A DNA stretch of 64,000 nucleotides from assembly GCA_026391255.1 (NCBI GenBank), contig JAPLDU010000055.1:925-64924 (forward strand). The letters are read 5' to 3'. The notes beneath the pieces were generated by a model. The model had not been told where the DNA came from, made no database searches, and saw nothing but the letters and a program-made list of their open reading frames with translations. This DNA comes from Bacteroidia bacterium. GTDB lineage: Bacteria; Bacteroidota; Bacteroidia; Bacteroidales; JAPLDU01. The translations under genes and the position numbers were made by a program. Of the stretch, positions 570-10,949 are shown one piece after another (position 1 is the first letter of the stretch; the number at the start of each line of letters is the position of its first letter).

Positions 570-1708
570 ATGGAAAAGAAATTACTACGGTATCTGAAGG
601 GAGATATCAGTATCTGGATCGTTGTCCTTTTTCTGTCCGTTATTTCGATCATGGTGGTATATAGTTCTACCGGAAGCCTGGCTTATAAAAACGCGGGAGG
701 TAATACATTTTATTTCCTTTTCAGGCATTCTATCATGCTGTTTATCGGGATCATCATCATTTTTCTTGTTCACCGGTTTGAATACAGGTACTTTTCAAGG
801 ATATCACAGATACTGCTTTATATTTCGATACCGTTACTGTTCCTGACCCTCATGTTTGGCGTGAGAGAAAATGAAGCCATGCGCCGTCTGTCATTATTCG
901 GGTTTACATTTCAGACTTCCGATCTCGCAAAACTTGCACTGATCATGTATCTTGCAAGGATATTATCTCAGGCACAGGATGATAAGGAAAAGCTTCAGAA
1001 AGTATTTAAAAAGGCCATTATTGCCATTGGATTGGTATGCCTGCTGATCGTACCGGCCAATTTTTCCACGGCAGCACTGGTTTTTCTTACATCGTGGGTA
1101 TTGATGTTCATTGCCCGCATTCCCTGGAAACCTTTGCTGGGAACACTCCTGGTGCTGATCATGTTAATCGGTGCATCCTATTTTGTTGGTAAGGCATATC
1201 CGAAATTATGGCGGTTCGGAACCGTCGCGAGCAGGATAGATACCTTTATGGGGAAAGCCACTGTTGATGAAGACAAATACCAGGTAAAACAGGCGAAAAT
1301 AGCAGTTGTAACAGGTGGATTATTTGGTAAAGGTCCCGGTCACAGTACACAACGTAATTATTTACCACATTCCTACTCTGATTTCATTTATGCAATCATC
1401 GTTGAGGAGTATGGTATCCCAGGGTCTGTGTTAGTTTTACTTTTATATCTGATCATCCTTTACCGGGCCGGGGTGATCATCAGGAAATCCCCGACTTTTT
1501 TCGGGGGTTTCCTTGCCGTGGGATTCTTATATTCCAGGCATTTATAAATATGGCCGTTTCGGTAAGCCTCTTTCCTGTAACCGGTCAGCCTCTGCCGTAC
1601 ATAAGTATGGGCGGTACCTCAATCCTGTTTACCAGCATTGCCATCGGATGTATTTTAAGCGTGAGTAAATATACCCAAAACCCGGAAGAAAATGCAGAAA
1701 TCGCTTAA
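570..1708 (+). CDS. ftsW: SEDS-family peptidoglycan glycosyltransferase FtsW, interrupted by an apparent 1-nt frameshift near 1520-1523
   Basis: The 325-aa ORF 570-1547 is a polytopic FtsW/RodA-like protein that stops at ...FLAVGFLYSRHL*. The +2 frame continues with the conserved SEDS C-terminus GILIFQAFINMAVSVSLFPVTGQPLPYISMGGTSILF... to the TAA at 1706-1708. The switch point is next to the GGG run at 1520-1522. Confidence 0.85.
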
Positions 1709-2795
1709 GGTAATCATCTCGGGTGGAGGAACAGGAGGCCACATCTTTCCTGCTATTTCCATTGCCAATGCTTTGAAACTGATTGATCCTGCCATCGAAA
1801 TATTATTTGTCGGGGCAAAGGGCAGGATGGAAATGGAAAAGATACCTCAGGCAGGGTATAAAATTCAGGGATTGTCAATCAGTGGTCTGCAACGTCGGCT
1901 GACCTACAAGAATTTCATTCTGCCATTTAAGATCACAAATAGCCTGCGACAGGCTGCAGGTATATTAAAGTCATTTAAGCCTGATGCTGCCGTCGGAGTA
2001 GGCGGTTATGCCAGTGGTGCACTTCTTTACATGGCTTCACGTAGGAAAATTCCTTACCTGATTCAGGAGCAAAATTCCTATCCCGGGATCACAAACCGGA
2101 TACTGGCTAAAAAAGCCCGGAAGATATGCGTTGCATACGATGGCATGGATAAGTATTTCCCTGCTGAAAAAATCATCATGACTGGCAATCCTGTGAGGCA
2201 GGATCTTGAAAATATTCATGACAAAAAAGAAGAAGCTATTCATTTCTTCGGGCTTGATATAGCAAAGAAAACTTTGCTGGTCATTGGAGGAAGCCTTGGT
2301 GCAAGGACGATTAACCAGAGTCTCCTGCAAAATATCGGGATATTGAAAAATGCCGGCATACAGGTCATCTGGCAGACTGGAAAGGGATATTACAGGCAAG
2401 CTAAATCACAGGCTGATCATCATGGTTTGGATAATCTGCATGTGCATGATTTCATCAACCGCATGGACCTGGCATATTCGGTTGCCAATGTGGTGATCTC
2501 AAGGGCAGGCGCAGGAACCATTTCAGAACTTTGCCTGGTAGGAAAGGCCTGCATTCTGGTGCCATCGCCCAATGTAGCTGAAGATCACCAGACAAAAAAT
2601 GCCATGGCTCTTGTAAACGAACATGCAGCCATGATGGTACCTGATGTTGAAGCGCCTGCAAGGTTGATCCAGGCTGCCCTGACCCTGATGGCTGACCGGG
2701 AATTAACGGAAACATTATCAGCCAATATCCGTAAACTGGCAATCAGGGATTCTGCCCGTAAAATCGCGGAAGAAGTGTTACAGATCATTCAGTAA
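1692..2795 (+). CDS. murG: UDP-N-acetylglucosamine--N-acetylmuramyl-(pentapeptide) pyrophosphoryl-undecaprenol GlcNAc transferase
   Basis: GT28 N-terminal motif SGGGTGGHIFPA and the C-terminal ISRAGAGTISE motif are present. The gene sits in the expected dcw position. Confidence 0.95.
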   Translation: MQKSLKVIISGGGTGGHIFPAISIANALKLIDPAIEILFVGAKGRMEMEKIPQAGYKIQGLSISGLQRRLTYKNFILPFKITNSLRQAAGILKSFKPDAAVGVGGYASGALLYMASRRKIPYLIQEQNSYPGITNRILAKKARKICVAYDGMDKYFPAEKIIMTGNPVRQDLENIHDKKEEAIHFFGLDIAKKTLLVIGGSLGARTINQSLLQNIGILKNAGIQVIWQTGKGYYRQAKSQADHHGLDNLHVHDFINRMDLAYSVANVVISRAGAGTISELCLVGKACILVPSPNVAEDHQTKNAMALVNEHAAMMVPDVEAPARLIQAALTLMADRELTETLSANIRKLAIRDSARKIAEEVLQIIQ

Positions 2796-5054: not shown

Positions 5055-6332
5055 ATGAAAGATTATTTGGTAGCAGTTGATATTGGTACAACCAAAACAC
5101 TCGCACTGGCAGGCAGGAAAGATGCTTCGGGCCTGCTCGAGATTATTGGTGGTTGTTCTTTACCTTCAGAAGAAGGCATCAAAAGAGGCAATGTCATTAA
5201 TATTGAGGTCACGGCACAGGCAATCAAAGCTGTTACTGATAAACTGAAACAGACGGCAGGAATAGATTTTAATTCTGTGATTACCTGTATTTCCGGCCAG
5301 TACATCAAAGCTTTGGTGAACAGGAGTTCAAAATATATTGATTCACCGGAAAGTGAAATCCGCTTAAAGGATACAACAGATCTTGCTGCCGATATGCATA
5401 AAATTTCATTAGAACCGGGCGACAAGATTCTGCATATTATTCCTCAAAGCTATATTGTAGATAATGAGGCAGGAATTAAAAATCCGGTGGGAATTTTCGG
5501 TAAAAGACTGGAGGGAAATTTTTATATAGTGGTTGGTCCGGAAATGTCGGTGAAAAACATCGGGAAATGTTTCAGCCGTGCCGGTCTCGATGTTGCTGAC
5601 CTGGAATTTGTTCCTCTGGCAGCGGCAAATGCAGTTCTCAGCCAGGACGAAAAAGATGCGGGAGTAGTATTGGTTGATTTTGGCGGAGGTACAACCAGCC
5701 TGGCTATTTATTATGACGGAATAATCAGGCATACTGCCGTAATTCCCTTTGGTGGTAATGCCGTTACAAATGATATCAAGGAAGGTTGTTCAATTCTTCC
5801 CCGCCAGGCCGAATCACTGAAACTCCAGTATGGTTCTGCCATGGGCGATGCAGCCGACGAGAACAAGGTGGTTTCAATTCCAGGTATCAGTGGCCGTAAG
5901 CCCAGGGAAATTTCCTTCCGTAACCTGGCATTTATTATTCAGGCAAGGATGGAAGAGCTGATCGAAATGGTATCAAAAGAGGTTGAAAGCTCCGGCATAG
6001 CTTCAAAACTGAGCGCAGGCATGGTTATTTCAGGTGGTGGCGCTATGTTACCCGGTCTGCCTGAACTGATCAGCTTTCATACAGGGATGGATGTCAGGAT
6101 TGGCATACCAGATGAGAAAATATCCAAAAACAGCAGGGAAGAGTTTCTGAAAACCAGCCATGCTGTCGGTATAGGCCTGTTGATGTATGGCTTTGAAAAA
6201 GGACTCGTTCTGCCTGACCCGGTCGTGGAAGAAGAAGAAGAGAATTCAGAACCTGTTGGAAAGAAAACAGGACTGTTTGGCTTGTTCGGTAGGAAAATAA
6301 AAGGAATAATGGATGAGGATAATATTCATTGA
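5055..6332 (+). CDS. ftsA: cell division protein FtsA (actin-like ATPase)
   Basis: Phosphate-binding motifs VDIGTTK and VDFGGGTT are present. The C-terminus ends in a hydrophobic/basic tail, GLFGLFGRKIKGIM, typical of the FtsA membrane-targeting helix. Confidence 0.93.
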   Translation: MKDYLVAVDIGTTKTLALAGRKDASGLLEIIGGCSLPSEEGIKRGNVINIEVTAQAIKAVTDKLKQTAGIDFNSVITCISGQYIKALVNRSSKYIDSPESEIRLKDTTDLAADMHKISLEPGDKILHIIPQSYIVDNEAGIKNPVGIFGKRLEGNFYIVVGPEMSVKNIGKCFSRAGLDVADLEFVPLAAANAVLSQDEKDAGVVLVDFGGGTTSLAIYYDGIIRHTAVIPFGGNAVTNDIKEGCSILPRQAESLKLQYGSAMGDAADENKVVSIPGISGRKPREISFRNLAFIIQARMEELIEMVSKEVESSGIASKLSAGMVISGGGAMLPGLPELISFHTGMDVRIGIPDEKISKNSREEFLKTSHAVGIGLLMYGFEKGLVLPDPVVEEEEENSEPVGKKTGLFGLFGRKIKGIMDEDNIH

Positions 6333-6445: not shown

Positions 6446-6510
6446 CATGACGTTCATGACGTCCATGACGTTCATGACGATCATGACTAATGACTTACGA
6501 CTGTTGACTA
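6446..6510. repeat. 9-nt tandem repeat (CATGACGTN)x4-5, decaying into GACTTACGACT words
   Basis: The sequence is CATGACGTT CATGACGTC CATGACGTT CATGACGAT CATGAC TAATGACTTACGACTGTTGACTA. It lies upstream of ftsZ-A. Confidence 0.9.
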
Positions 6511-6551
6511 TTATCAATGACCTTATTTGTTATGATAACAATTTTTTGAGA

Positions 6552-7805
6552 ATGAAAGAGAAAAATTTATTTCCTGAAATAGTGGATAAACCTGATGATC
6601 TGATTGATTTTGCATTTACAGAATTCAGTCCCTCCATTATCAAAGTAATCGGGGTCGGTGGAGGTGGCAGTAATGCAGTGAACCACATGTTTGAAACCGG
6701 CATTGAGGATGTGGAATTTGTCGTGTGTAATACCGATTCGCAGGCTTTGGCCAATAGCCCGGTAAGAACGAAAATCCAGTTAGGAACCGGCATCACTGAA
6801 GGCAGAGGGGCAGGAAGCGATCCGGGTGTCGGAGAACAAGCCGCCCGTGAAAACCTGCAGGATATCATTAATGTACTCGAGAATAATACAAAAATGGTGT
6901 TTATCACAGCAGGAATGGGAGGTGGTACCGGTACCGGGGCTGCTCCGGTGATCGCAGAAGAAGCCAGATCAAGAAAAATCCTCACGGTCGCTATTGTTAC
7001 GATTCCTTTTAAGACTGAAGTAGGTAACCGTTACAAACAAGCACTGGCTGGGATAAAAAAATTGCAAACACATGTTGATTCCCTGATCGTCATTGATAAT
7101 GAGCAGATAAACAAGAATTACGGTGATTCATCCTTTTCCGAAGCATTTAAGGAGGCAGATAAAATTTTGGGAACTGCAGCAAAAGCCATTGTGCAGATTA
7201 TCAAGATACATGGAATGTGGAATGTTGATTTCAATGACGTGAAAAAGGTAATGACCGACAGTGGTGTAGCCCTTATGGGAATTGGTGTTGCCAGTGGTGC
7301 TGACAGGGCCGTTACGGCTGTGGAAAATGCATTGAAATCGCCCCTTCTGAATAATAATAATATCAGGGATGCAAAAAAGATTTTACTGAATATTATTTCA
7401 GGAACAAATGAAATTCTGATGAGGGAGACACAGGATATTTGCCTGGCCCTGCAAAAAGAAACAGGGAGTGATCAGGAAGAATTCATCATGGGTGTGGCCA
7501 GGGATATGGGCCTGGGGGAAAACATATGTGTCACAGTAATAGCTACTGGATTTAAATCAGTTAACCCGGAGGATTACCGTAAACCTGAAGAACCTGAGAA
7601 TTTGATCCCTCCTGTTCCGGAAGAACCACCTGTTCCGGATGAAACTTCTTTTCAGGAAGAAATACAGCCGGAAGAGCCGGTTCAGGAGGACATACATCCT
7701 GAAGAACCAAAAATGAAGAAAAAGAAAATAAAAGACAAAAATCAGTTGAGTCTGTGGGAGAAATTCATGGAGAGTAAAAAGATATTTAATGAAGATATTA
7801 ATTAG
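6552..7805 (+). CDS. ftsZ: FtsZ paralog A (most divergent; acidic Pro/Glu-rich linker, basic/amphipathic C-terminus)
   Basis: FtsZ motifs GVGGGGSNAVNHM, NTDSQAL, GMGGGTGTGAAP (tubulin signature), NVDFNDV (T7) and VTVIATGF are present. The preferred start is ATG 6552 (MKEKNLF...). The longer ORF from 6447 begins inside a 9-nt tandem repeat (MTFMTSMTFMT). Confidence 0.9.
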   Translation: MKEKNLFPEIVDKPDDLIDFAFTEFSPSIIKVIGVGGGGSNAVNHMFETGIEDVEFVVCNTDSQALANSPVRTKIQLGTGITEGRGAGSDPGVGEQAARENLQDIINVLENNTKMVFITAGMGGGTGTGAAPVIAEEARSRKILTVAIVTIPFKTEVGNRYKQALAGIKKLQTHVDSLIVIDNEQINKNYGDSSFSEAFKEADKILGTAAKAIVQIIKIHGMWNVDFNDVKKVMTDSGVALMGIGVASGADRAVTAVENALKSPLLNNNNIRDAKKILLNIISGTNEILMRETQDICLALQKETGSDQEEFIMGVARDMGLGENICVTVIATGFKSVNPEDYRKPEEPENLIPPVPEEPPVPDETSFQEEIQPEEPVQEDIHPEEPKMKKKKIKDKNQLSLWEKFMESKKIFNEDIN

Positions 7806-7834
7806 TCATAAGTCGTAAGTCATAAGTCATAAGG
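7805..7834. repeat. 9-nt tandem repeat (GTCATAAGT-like)x3; related words at 6485-6510 and 61366-61396 (inverted)
   Basis: The sequence is GTCATAAGTCGTAAGTCATAAGTCATAAGG and starts at the ftsZ-A stop codon. Confidence 0.85.
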
Positions 7835-7903
7835 CAAAAGTTATAAGACAAAAGGGAATAAGGAGTACGTAGTAATGCTATTGGAAATATGCAGAAAAAT
7901 CAG

Positions 7904-7936
7904 GTAATTGTAATTCGTAAATCGTAATTCTAAAAT
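7904..7936. repeat. inverted copy of the 'TTAGAATTACGA' head of the 13781/17212/24402 element family
   Basis: The sequence is GTAATTGTAATTCGTAAATCGTAATTCTAAAAT. It ends 8 nt before the ftsZ-B ATG. Confidence 0.75.
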
Positions 7937-7944
7937 AATATAGT

Positions 7945-9303
7945 ATGGCAGAAACTGAAAATATCAGCGCACCGGTAAGCCAGTCTTCCATAATAAAAGT
8001 AATGGGAGTAGGCGGAGGAGGCAGCAATGCTGTGAACCATATGTTCAGGCAGGGCATCAGAGATGTTGATTTCCTGGTTTGTAATACCGATGCACAGGCA
8101 TTATTGCTCAGTCCCGTGCCTGCTAAAGTACAGATCGGTGAATCTCTCACCGATGGAAGAGGCGCCGGAAACAACCCTGAGATCGGATGCAAAGCAGCCC
8201 TTGAAACAGAGGAATCACTGAGGACTATCCTTTCAGAAAACACTAAAATGCTTTTTATAACGGCAGGAATGGGAGGTGGAACAGGTACGGGCGCAGCGCC
8301 TGTGATCGCACGAATTGCACACGAACTCGATATTCTTACCGTGGGCATAGTAACAATTCCTTTCAGATTTGAAGGAAATGTGAGGATCAGGCAAGCCGTG
8401 GCTGGTATTGAAGAACTTGAGAAATATGTCGACTCATTGCTGGTTGTCAACAATGAGAAACTCAGGAGTATGTTCGGCGATCAGAGGATTTCCGAAGCTT
8501 TTGAGAATGCTGATAATATCCTGACGGCTGCTGCAAAAGGAATTGCTGAGATTATCACCCTGCCCGGTTATGTCAATGTTGACTTTGCCGATGTTCATAC
8601 CGTAATGCATAAGAGTGGTGTGGCCATCATGGGATCTGCCAATTCCACAGGCGAGAACCGTGCTATGCATGCAATCCGCAAAGCGCTCAGTTCTCCCTTG
8701 CTGAACAGCAACCATATTACGGGGGCAAAAAATGTCCTGCTGAATGTGACCTCGGGAACCGAAGAATTCAGACTTGATGAATTATGCGAGATCACCGATT
8801 TTGTACAAAGCGAGGTTGAAGATAATGTCCAGATAATCTGGGGTCACGGAATTGATCCGCGGCTTGGCGATAACATATGCGTCACGGTGATTGCCACTGG
8901 TTTTGAAAAGGAAAATGTTCATGATGTTTTCATTGAAAAAGAAAAACTTGACAGTGCAGAGATTCACAGGCTCATTGATAAGATCGACCTGGAAATAATC
9001 AGCAAAAAATCAGAAGTTGCTATTGCCTCTGATCCGGAAGATTACAGGAAGGTTTTTCCTGAACAAATAACCCAAATTCCGGAAGAAGAAAAGCAGGAGT
9101 CGAAAAAAGCAGAAATTCTGGAGGAACTGATGACAGTTCATCTCAAACCGGAACATATTTTTGCAGATGTTCAGGAAAAGAAGGAAGAGGTAAAAACAGA
9201 AAGCATGTTTTCAAAAAGTCACAGACCGAAAGTAAAAAAAGCAAAAGAAGACAGGGAGAAAGGCTGGATACAGACCACCATCGAAGGATTCTTTACATCA
9301 TGA
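7945..9303 (+). CDS. ftsZ: FtsZ paralog B
   Basis: GVGGGGSNAVNHM, NTDAQAL, GMGGGTGTGAAP, PFRFEG, NVDFADV and VTVIATGF are present. It has a long charged C-terminal extension ending in GWIQTTIEGFFTS. Confidence 0.92.
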   Translation: MAETENISAPVSQSSIIKVMGVGGGGSNAVNHMFRQGIRDVDFLVCNTDAQALLLSPVPAKVQIGESLTDGRGAGNNPEIGCKAALETEESLRTILSENTKMLFITAGMGGGTGTGAAPVIARIAHELDILTVGIVTIPFRFEGNVRIRQAVAGIEELEKYVDSLLVVNNEKLRSMFGDQRISEAFENADNILTAAAKGIAEIITLPGYVNVDFADVHTVMHKSGVAIMGSANSTGENRAMHAIRKALSSPLLNSNHITGAKNVLLNVTSGTEEFRLDELCEITDFVQSEVEDNVQIIWGHGIDPRLGDNICVTVIATGFEKENVHDVFIEKEKLDSAEIHRLIDKIDLEIISKKSEVAIASDPEDYRKVFPEQITQIPEEEKQESKKAEILEELMTVHLKPEHIFADVQEKKEEVKTESMFSKSHRPKVKKAKEDREKGWIQTTIEGFFTS

Positions 9304-9518: not shown

Positions 9519-10949
9519 ATGTTAGGAAAAATCCATATCGGAAAGAATGGTGCATCCACCATCAAAGTGATCGGAGTAGGAGGCGGAGGAAGCAATGCAG
9601 TGAATCACATGTACAACGCCGGGATAGCGGAAGTGGTTTTTGCTGTGTGTAACACTGATGTCCAGGCATTGAAAATAAGCCCGGTGCCAATAAAGATACA
9701 ACTGGGAGCGACACTGACAGGAGGCAGGGGAGCAGGGAACAAGCCTGAAACCGGCAGGATGTCTGCCGTAGAAACCATTGACCAGATTGACGAAATATTG
9801 AAAGACGACACCAGGATGGTATTTATCACTGCAGGAATGGGAGGAGGTACCGGTACCGGCGCAGCGCCTGTCATTGCAAAAACTGCCAGGGAAAGAGGTA
9901 TCCTGACCATCGGAATCGTCACTTTACCTTTCAGATTTGAGGGAAAGCGCAGGATTGACCAGGCAATCAAGGGAATCCGGGAACTGCAGGATTATGTAGA
10001 CTCATTGCTGGTCATCAATAATGAGAAGTTAAGAGAGATGTATGGTAACCTGAAAATATCCGATGCATTCCTGGTGGCCGACAATATTCTTACCATTGCT
10101 GCGCGAAGCATTGCAGAGATTATCACTATCCAGGGCTATGTAAATGTTGATTTTTCCGATATTAAAACAGTAATGAAAGACAGCGGCCTGGCCATCATGG
10201 GTTCGGCTACTGCATCCGGCGAAGGCCGGGCTGAAAAGGCCGTCCGCAATGCAATCAGCTCACCTCTGCTTGATAATAATGAAATTGCAGGAGCTAAAAA
10301 TATCCTGCTTCACGTATCGTCCGGTACACAAGAGGTAACCATGGATGAAATAGGGATCATTTCTGATTTTCTGCAGGAACAGGCCGGCGCACAGACAAAT
10401 ATCATCTGGGGTAACAGCATCAATCCTGCATTGGGAGAACAGTTATCAGTGACCATTATCGCAACCGGTTTCAAATCAGAAGTTGTACCTGATCTCTATG
10501 TCGCTGAGCATTATAACCGGTCTGTTTATGAACTGGGTAAAAACTCAGATGACAATCAACAAGCATCAGGAAACTCAAAAAAAGAAAAGGCTGCAATGAT
10601 TGATAATGCAATGACCAGTTCTCAACCGAAAACCACATTTACGGGAAGCGATGCAAAAATCAAGACTGACAGGGCTGAAACCGGTACTGAAGTGACAAAG
10701 AATCCGGCTAAGGATGAATCATTGATTAAAGAAGAAAAATTAAAAAAAACTACCGATGGTCTGAATTACCGTAAAGATATCAATGAAATTGAATCCATTC
10801 CAGCATACCTGAGAAAACAGGCTTTAAAAAAAATATTAGAAGAAAAAGCAAACAACCAGGAATTATCTGACAGGGTCTTGCATAGTAATGACAAAGGGCA
10901 GGTGGTCATTGGTGAAAACCCGTTTATCGGGAAAAAGAAAGTTGACTGA
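9519..10949 (+). CDS. ftsZ: FtsZ paralog C (carries the canonical C-terminal FtsA-binding peptide IPAYLRKQ)
   Basis: GVGGGGSNAVNHM, NTDVQAL, GMGGGTGTGAAP, PFRFEGKRR, NVDFSDI and VTIIATGF are present. The conserved peptide ESIPAYLRKQ is encoded at 10797-10820 and is followed by about 42 more residues. Confidence 0.93.
   Translation: MLGKIHIGKNGASTIKVIGVGGGGSNAVNHMYNAGIAEVVFAVCNTDVQALKISPVPIKIQLGATLTGGRGAGNKPETGRMSAVETIDQIDEILKDDTRMVFITAGMGGGTGTGAAPVIAKTARERGILTIGIVTLPFRFEGKRRIDQAIKGIRELQDYVDSLLVINNEKLREMYGNLKISDAFLVADNILTIAARSIAEIITIQGYVNVDFSDIKTVMKDSGLAIMGSATASGEGRAEKAVRNAISSPLLDNNEIAGAKNILLHVSSGTQEVTMDEIGIISDFLQEQAGAQTNIIWGNSINPALGEQLSVTIIATGFKSEVVPDLYVAEHYNRSVYELGKNSDDNQQASGNSKKEKAAMIDNAMTSSQPKTTFTGSDAKIKTDRAETGTEVTKNPAKDESLIKEEKLKKTTDGLNYRKDINEIESIPAYLRKQALKKILEEKANNQELSDRVLHSNDKGQVVIGENPFIGKKKVD

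Follow-up and report, generated by a model that had tools for sequence, protein, structure and literature searches.

How the Z ring is anchored, and why certain lineages retain two FtsZ proteins with different attachments to the membrane, is an open question that has been studied mainly with artificial fusions of FtsZ to a membrane-targeting sequence (mts), in the chloroplast and archaeal systems, and of late in mycoplasmas. The same question is raised by a 64,000-nucleotide stretch of DNA from a member of the Bacteroidales (GTDB lineage JAPLDU01; assembly GCA_026391255.1, contig JAPLDU010000055.1, positions 925 to 64,924 of the forward strand), here called the window, in which ftsA is followed by three complete ftsZ genes. 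These are referred to, in order from ftsA, as paralogs A, B, and C. Paralogs A and B are intact FtsZ proteins that lack the FtsA-binding C-terminal peptide (CTP) and end in a conserved terminal motif with the periodicity of a helix, which resembles the tail of FtsA at the level of the CTP-less class as a whole. Their gene order recurs in other genomes. From these sequence features, we lean toward reading A and B as self-anchoring FtsZ paralogs in which an FtsA-type membrane tail would have replaced the CTP. A preliminary description of the region had raised this possibility, with binding to a different partner as its alternative.

The three genes lie at the left end of the window on the plus strand, where the distal part of the division and cell wall (dcw) cluster reads murD (partial), ftsW, murG, murC, ftsQ, ftsA, and then ftsZ three times (Table 1). 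FtsZ membership was assigned with the curated equivalog model TIGR00065 (cut-off, 295.2 bits) together with the domains PF00091 and PF12327. A, B, and C all score above the cut-off and contain both Pfam domains (Tubulin and FtsZ_C). The G-box GGGTGTGAAPVIA, of the GGGTGTG type, is intact in all three proteins, and the T7 synergy loop (NxDFxD) reads NVDFND in A, NVDFAD in B, and NVDFSD in C. No further FtsZ match occurs in the assembly (4.08 Mb; completeness, 97.5%). Pairwise identity between the cores is 55 to 62%, indicating that A, B, and C are old paralogs and neither a recent duplication nor an assembly artifact. No plus-strand terminator was found between the three ftsZ genes, and a sigma-70 promoter scan of the same intervals, with a model that is ill suited to Bacteroidota promoters, gave nothing above shuffled sequences.

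The paralogs are split by the adaptor-binding peptide, which is present in C and missing from A and B. A CTP profile was built from 94 distinct C-terminal peptides of canonical Bacteroidales FtsZ, and canonical FtsZ proteins score a median of 27.6 bits against it (minimum, 14.2). C matches this profile with 19.8 bits at residues 420 to 434. In contrast, A gave no match, and B gave just 1.1 bits, off-target within the globular domain. In line with this, neither a regular expression nor the profile found a (D/E)IPxFLR(K/R)-type motif in A or B, as the preliminary description had maintained. It had also quoted the C-terminal ends of A (...PEEPENLIPPVPEEPPVPDETSFQEEIQPEEPVQEDIHPEEPKMKKKKIKDKNQLSLWEKFMESKKIFNEDIN; stop codon at 7803-7805) and B (...HRPKVKKAKEDREKGWIQTTIEGFFTS; stop codon at 9301-9303), which translation reproduces exactly, and had named a cryptic FtsA-binding motif in either protein as a finding that would count against self-tethering; the profile search found none. 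As a separate observation on the canonical type, Bacteroidales FtsZ proteins (L004-L116) carry a second conserved motif, N(S/P)YLHDNVD, at the extreme C terminus, about 35 to 45 residues past the CTP. The counterpart of this motif in C reads NPFIGKKKVD.

In place of the CTP, both A and B have a basic cluster followed by a hydrophobic-patterned end, an arrangement that had been noted before and that is borne out here. The cluster is KMKKKKIKDKNQ in A (net charge, +6) and HRPKVKKAKEDREKG in B (net charge, +4), and in A it follows a Pro/Glu-rich linker with a net charge of -14. Comparable K/R clusters lie ahead of the hydrophobic end in other CTP-less FtsZ proteins and in FtsA tails. The tail consensus of the A clade is (G/S)(I/L)Q(K/R/T)(L/F)(I/L)xFFD(D/E)E; between window A and its nearest relatives (PIQTMLGFLEDVF, PIQAVLGFLEEV), the sequences differ while the hydrophobic spacing is kept. 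The B clade ends in W[IF]QT[TKS][ILF][DE]x[LFMI]F, with W441, Q443, T444, and F450 invariant in 19 sequences, while the linkers of the same sequences, ~110 residues long, are nearly devoid of conserved columns. The tails are thus more than a product of chance, because among orthologues the last 10 to 14 residues are conserved even though the linkers defy alignment. A search with B residues 395 to 452 alone against a database of 5.8 billion proteins matched only B itself. Against a database of that size, a query as short as the B tail cannot give useful E-values, and orthologues were therefore gathered by whole-protein searches.

To place these tails in a wider context, 401 Bacteroidales genomes were sampled, those with at least two FtsZ matches were inspected, and their loci were fetched and the tails read; the window genome is the sole member of its family among the genomes searched. 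A CTP-less, tailed ftsZ was verified in 19 of the 401 genomes, which belong to nine GTDB families (f1, f15, f19, f32, f77, f101, f108, f131, and f132). CTP-less and canonical genes stand in tandem in 18 of the 19, the CTP-less copy of f132 being located elsewhere in the genome. In all 18 tandem sets, the ftsA-proximal copy or copies lack the CTP, and the distal-most copy carries PAYKRK and N(S/P)YLHDNVD. The CTP-less tails follow a common layout, in which a K/R cluster leads into 10 to 14 residues patterned with W/F/L/I that close in (L/F)F, followed by acidic residues. The two-copy form is found in the cultured Tangfeifania diversioriginum DSM 27063 and Mariniphaga sediminis SY21, as well as in metagenome-assembled genomes labelled Draconibacterium and other Prolixibacteraceae; their tail reads NIDNWFYKNFGLGKLFEDEDQ. 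The order ftsA-A-B-C is shared by family f32 and by two metagenomic contigs that are closer to the window genome (L117 and L120). In other orders of the class, each of the 57 sampled genomes has one ftsZ (57/57). In f101 (L018, G100:C184, 2998-4458, minus strand), the ftsA-proximal FtsZ lacks the CTP and bears a basic amphipathic stretch, KKKNGFIKKIGRTIVEF, ~28 residues before the C terminus.

In a maximum-likelihood tree of 145 FtsZ cores, A clusters with the A-type copies of f32 (Shimodaira-Hasegawa-like approximate likelihood ratio test [SH-aLRT], 99), B clusters with the B-type copies of f32 (SH-aLRT, 100), and C clusters with those copies in f32 and G100 that bear the CTP (SH-aLRT, 94). 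Since each paralog groups with its f32 counterpart, the triplication predates the split between the family of the window genome and f32. As to whether the CTP-less FtsZ proteins go back to one origin, the tree as drawn requires six or more changes of the CTP label, but one change could suffice given the starred branches, and an approximately unbiased test does not reject a single CTP-less clade (p = 0.106). We speculate that the tail may have been captured in a tandem duplication whose junction fused the 3' end of ftsA to the linker of ftsZ; at the core identities given above, the duplications are too old for the origin of the tail to be traced at the DNA level.

The consensus tail of Bacteroidales FtsA, taken from 64 single-ftsZ genomes, is K-rich...GF(F/M)xxLKKxFxx(I/F)F(D/E)E(D/E)Dxx(M). 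FtsA and CTP-less FtsZ tails share a basic cluster, the pattern ΦxxxΦxxΦF (Φ, hydrophobic), and an acidic end. A hidden Markov model (HMM) trained only on the 64 FtsA tails was searched against 3462 proteins, comprising 3317 open reading frames (ORFs) of the window genome and 145 FtsZ. CTP-less FtsZ proteins took ranks 1 to 7 and 10 to 13 of the 3462 (best E-value, 0.003), and the best canonical FtsZ was placed 86th. Matches were obtained for 36 entries labelled as CTP-less (35 CTP-less proteins and the mislabelled canonical L013), in 33 of which the match lies no more than 15 residues from the C terminus. A side observation concerns FtsA itself: many two-ftsZ Prolixibacteraceae (L071, L072, L076, L082, L089, L094, L095, and L100) have an atypical FtsA tail, PWIKNVVQGVLDYVDDDDD, and in these genomes it is FtsZ1 that bears the ...LFEDED ending usual for FtsA elsewhere in the order.

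Amphipathicity was measured as the hydrophobic moment of the best 12-residue stretch in the last 30 residues. The median moment is 0.58 in 40 CTP-less FtsZ proteins, compared with 0.35 in 105 canonical FtsZ proteins and 0.68 in FtsA tails of the same loci (CTP-less versus canonical, Mann-Whitney p = 7e-20, for sequences that are related by descent). The best stretch of the window FtsA tail, LFGLFGRKIKGI, has a moment of 0.66. As the single-sequence moments of A and B are not significant, the argument from amphipathicity was based on clade profiles. When hydrophobicity is averaged by column, with the terminal F as the anchor position, its periodicity is strongest at 90 degrees per residue in the B clade, 100 to 120 in the A clade, 80 to 90 in the two-copy clades, and 90 to 100 in FtsA. 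No peak at beta-strand periodicity (160 to 180 degrees) was found in any of these four tail profiles. Furthermore, the A clade, the B clade, the two-copy clades, and FtsA have hydrophobic positions -9/-8, -4, -1, and 0 in common. The AlphaFold2 prediction of A, made from a 130-sequence alignment, has a mean predicted local distance difference test (pLDDT) score of 82, with the core above 90 and the linker disordered.

If A and B are active, self-anchoring FtsZ GTPases, the anchor would start with a disordered linker and continue with a Lys/Arg cluster and a short amphipathic helix of the form ΦΦxxxΦxxΦF, closing in a few acidic residues. Anionic lipids would attract the polybasic cluster electrostatically, and the W/F/L/I face of the helix would enter the cytoplasmic membrane at its inner leaflet. 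A and B, or any filament with A or B subunits, would in this way be attached independently of FtsA. C, via IPAYLRK, would couple the ring to FtsA and, through it, to the other divisome proteins. The three proteins would most likely co-assemble or act successively at the division site, and the two jobs of a single ancestral FtsZ would be split between direct tethering (A and B) and adaptor recruitment (C). A wider scenario can be sketched, in which Bacteroidales evolved self-anchoring FtsZ by placing an FtsA-type tail on duplicates of the dcw-cluster ftsZ, and in which the ring here contains three FtsZ proteins, with membrane-tethered A and B co-assembling with FtsA-coupled C, as an independent bacterial counterpart of the FtsZ1/FtsZ2 division of labor in chloroplasts and archaea. 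This scenario is tentative, and we would sooner expect some part of it to fail than the whole to hold.

Several observations weigh against self-anchoring. The preliminary description had compared the tails of A and B with the membrane-targeting helices of FtsA and MinD. The likeness to FtsA holds for the CTP-less class, which tops the FtsA-tail HMM search, but it is weak in window A, which scores 2.9 bits (rank about 50), and B gives no match. The atypical tail of the window's own FtsA scores -1.9 bits in the same model. The comparison also takes FtsA tails as membrane anchors, a role that is known from E. coli, B. subtilis, and T. maritima and is extended here to Bacteroidales. The proposed amphipathicity is seen as helical periodicity at the clade level and is not borne out by the single tails taken alone: the moment is 0.61 in A (KNQLSLWEKFME, which starts three residues upstream of LSLWEKFMESKKIF) and 0.42 in B, and neither is above shuffles of the tail (p = 0.26 and 0.60, respectively). 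AlphaFold2 places a helix at residues 400 to 410 of the A tail (SLWEKFMESKK) with a pLDDT of only about 45, and its prediction of B from a 19-sequence alignment is poor (mean pLDDT, 58.7), with a tail helix of just 3 residues. Moreover, the helical segments are not basic, with a net charge of about +1 in A and -1 in B and an acidic end following, which is unusual for a lipid anchor. In the B clade, the invariant polar Q and T mark a constraint that is tighter than amphipathicity needs. The invariant Q and T of B, and the acidic run after the helix in FtsZ and FtsA tails, are not explained by lipid binding alone.

Part of this evidence would suit a terminal motif that acts as a short linear motif docking a protein partner, which could be a different anchor or regulator, or a factor that also binds the similar, acidic-ended tail of Bacteroidales FtsA; A and B would then recruit this partner or be recruited by it. 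Such docking is unlikely, in our judgment, yet it deserves serious attention, as Q443 and T444 of the B clade stand beside W and F, the hydrophobic segment runs directly into the acidic run in FtsZ and FtsA tails alike, the single-sequence moments lie within shuffles, and the B tail is unmatched by the FtsA-tail HMM. However, the residues vary while the pattern stays, from LSLWEKFMESKKIF in window A and PIQTMLGFLEDVF in its nearest relatives to NWFYKNFGLGKLF in Prolixibacteraceae and AITRLMGSLF in f19, and such change across clades is more readily explained by a physico-chemical constraint than by one binding pocket. In addition, the polybasic cluster is always upstream of the terminal motif, and no candidate partner gene travelling with the CTP-less paralogs was seen in the loci read. 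The tails could also be imagined as a divergent, cryptic FtsA-binding peptide by which A and B would still be tethered through FtsA, either in the 2B subdomain, as is usual, or elsewhere on the protein. This is improbable, given that the lowest-scoring canonical copy still reaches 14.2 bits in the CTP profile, against no match for A and an off-target 1.1 bits for B, and that neither tail has a Pro-Ala-aromatic core or a basic pair after it. It is true that these tails, like the canonical CTP, would form a short terminal hydrophobic helix after a disordered linker, and that ftsA lies directly upstream and is the sole anchor gene seen in these loci. Nevertheless, a standard CTP is provided by C in the same cell, two alternative FtsA-binding tails would need long-term retention, and the tails resemble the tail of FtsA rather than its ligand. 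Finally, we give next to no credence to the idea that the tails are functionless and that A and B are redundant or decaying duplicates whose ends look amphipathic by chance. The window tails do have moments inside the shuffle range and low AlphaFold2 confidence, but both the A and B clades are old and common to another GTDB family, both proteins retain every catalytic motif, the terminal motif is kept while about 45 to 110 linker residues drift beyond alignment, and the rule that the proximal copy is CTP-less holds in nine families.

Table 1. Coordinates of the features discussed; positions are those of the window unless a genome and contig are given.
Feature	Position	Strand	Evidence or remark
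ftsA	5055..6332	+	425 aa; TIGR01174, 341 bits; FtsA and SHS2 Pfam domains
Tail of window FtsA, GKKTGLFGLFGRKIKGIMDEDNIH	6258-6329	+	Basic, amphipathic, acidic end
ftsZ paralog A	6552..7805	+	417 aa from likely start; TIGR00065, 332.6 bits
A, PFKTEVGNR segment (TIPFKTEVGNRY), replacing PFxFEGxxR	7005-7031	+	Sequence
A, Pro/Glu-rich acidic linker	7572..7709	+	Net charge -14; AlphaFold2, disordered, pLDDT about 40-50
A, polybasic cluster KMKKKKIKDKNQ	7710..7745	+	+6
A, hydrophobic-periodic segment LSLWEKFMESKKIF and acidic end NEDIN; proposed membrane-targeting helix	7746..7802	+	Clade-level periodicity; AlphaFold2 helix at residues 400-410, pLDDT about 45
ftsZ paralog B	7945..9303	+	452 aa; TIGR00065, 375.0 bits
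B, basic stretch HRPKVKKAKEDREKG	9220..9264	+	+4; K-rich runs at same place in orthologues
B, terminal motif WIQTTIEGFF-TS; proposed membrane-targeting helix or possible partner-binding motif	9265..9300	+	
ftsZ paralog C, canonical copy	9519..10949	+	476 aa; TIGR00065, 362.9 bits
C, FtsA-binding peptide DINEIESIPAYLRKQ (IPAYLRK)	10776..10820	+	CTP profile
C, 42-residue extension after CTP, ending NPFIGKKKVD	10821-10946	+	
f90, ORF matching N-terminal half of FtsZ	G089:C5:37506-38099		
f90, ORF matching N-terminal half of FtsZ	G218:C1:238501-239082		
f90, ORF matching N-terminal half of FtsZ	G325:C108:30517-31089		

Paralog A has further features of its own. Its ORF opens at 6447 inside a 9-nt ATG-containing tandem repeat (MTFMTSMTFMTIMT, window 6447-6551), which adds 35 apparent codons. 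The true start is most likely 6552, because the N terminus can be aligned to A-type orthologues only from M36 (6552; MKEKNLFPEIVDKPDDLIDFAF); the N termini of the orthologues read LLDFAF. Canonical Bacteroidales FtsZ proteins begin with a conserved peptide of the (L/I)xNFDLP type (N termini in L015-L120), a version of which (LIDFAF; window 6552-6640) is retained within the triple by A alone and has been lost from B and C. An N-terminal function may therefore have been divided among the paralogs too. Within the core, PF(x)(S/T)E(I/V)G(N/D)R is common to the whole A clade, in contrast to the near-universal nucleotide-contacting PFxFEGxxR, for which B and C are canonical. Judging from this segment, A may bind or hydrolyze GTP differently.

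Other observations concern the neighborhood of the locus and FtsZ proteins elsewhere. The ftsW ORF (570-1547) has only 325 aa, compared with 382 aa in the orthologue of the close relative L117, which suggests a frameshift or an assembly error near the 3' end of ftsW (window 570-1710). Extra ftsZ genes in f163, which belongs to another class, were considered as the same phenomenon and rejected, since the copies are unlinked and those read keep PAYLRR peptides. The dcw-type FtsZ of f163 (L121-L128) has two FtsA-binding-type peptides in series (IPAYIRR ... DTPAYLRRKNN), and the extra, divergent copies, which retain the peptide where read, number one or two in some genomes of that family. Genomes of f90 contain unlinked ORFs of 228 to 270 aa whose matches to FtsZ are confined to its N-terminal GTPase half. 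In L032 (G256:C62, 1605-3089), a divergent FtsZ-like protein of 494 aa, unlinked to dcw, scores 262 bits, below the cut-off, and has an unrelated C-terminal region.

If the tails of A and B bind membrane, free-living, walled diderm bacteria would carry a natural FtsZ-mts beside a normal FtsZ and FtsA. Some of the hosts are cultivable (Tangfeifania, Mariniphaga, and Draconibacterium) and could provide a genetic system for comparing direct with FtsA-mediated tethering, in which one could also ask whether mixed filaments adjust the density of anchors. If the tails instead bind a protein, they would point to a new Bacteroidales division factor, which perhaps also recognizes the FtsA tail.

A close likeness is to the two-copy pairs of Prolixibacteraceae and other Bacteroidales, in which the ftsA-proximal copy carries a K-rich run and NWFYKNFGLGKLFEDED and lacks the CTP, while the distal copy is canonical. 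Unlike these pairs, the window and f32 have three copies and two distinct CTP-less clades, and A has an altered PFxFEG segment. According to a published survey, bacteria with two ftsZ genes are few and have the additional copy at a site away from the dcw cluster (PMC9871819), a generalization that the tandem dcw-cluster copies described here contradict. Our literature searches found no description of tandem ftsZ paralogs in Bacteroidales.

The C-terminal membrane-targeting sequence of FtsA was reportedly described by Pichoff and Lutkenhaus in 2005. The tails of A and B are like it in placing a basic stretch before a proposed terminal amphipathic helix, and CTP-less FtsZ tails as a class share ΦxxxΦxxΦF and an acidic end with the Bacteroidales FtsA consensus. 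A and B differ in that the tail stands on a tubulin-fold rather than an actin-fold protein, and the HMM match is strong in the two-copy clades, weak in A, and absent in B. Osawa, Anderson, and Erickson are said to have engineered, in 2008, an FtsZ-YFP-mts in which the membrane-targeting sequence of MinD replaces the CTP. A and B have the same plan of an FtsZ core, a linker, and a proposed amphipathic membrane-targeting helix in place of the CTP. However, FtsZ-YFP-mts is artificial, whereas A and B would represent its natural version, present alongside canonical FtsZ and FtsA.

Among natural systems, Dutta et al. (bioRxiv 10.1101/2023.08.29.555414) showed for Mycoplasma genitalium FtsZ that its C-terminal amphipathic helix binds liposomes and can bring the core of E. 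coli FtsZ to the membrane. Like FtsZ of M. genitalium and M. pneumoniae, A and B lack a canonical CTP, and they end in a short segment that is a putative amphipathic helix. The Mycoplasma protein is the only FtsZ of a wall-less host with a minimal genome, and its helix has a cholesterol-recognition motif; A and B, in contrast, are extra copies in a walled diderm, in tandem with a canonical FtsZ in the dcw cluster, and their tails follow the local FtsA-tail design. OdinFtsZ1 has a membrane-binding N-terminal helix (PMC12583498). The same Odin paper cites direct membrane binding for chloroplast FtsZ1, reportedly through a C-terminal motif of AtFtsZ1 (PMC12583498). In chloroplast and archaeal FtsZ1/FtsZ2 pairs, one paralog keeps the peptide for an adaptor (ARC6 or SepF), and the other is without it and is reported to bind membrane directly, so that the tethering is divided between the two (PMC12583498, with the Liu 2022 and An 2024 work that it cites). 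The paralogs of the window are like these pairs in differing by an adaptor-binding peptide, with which C is equipped and A and B are not. They differ in that the duplications are independent, the adaptor is FtsA, the proposed anchor is C-terminal and FtsA-like, and there are three paralogs, two of which lack the peptide.

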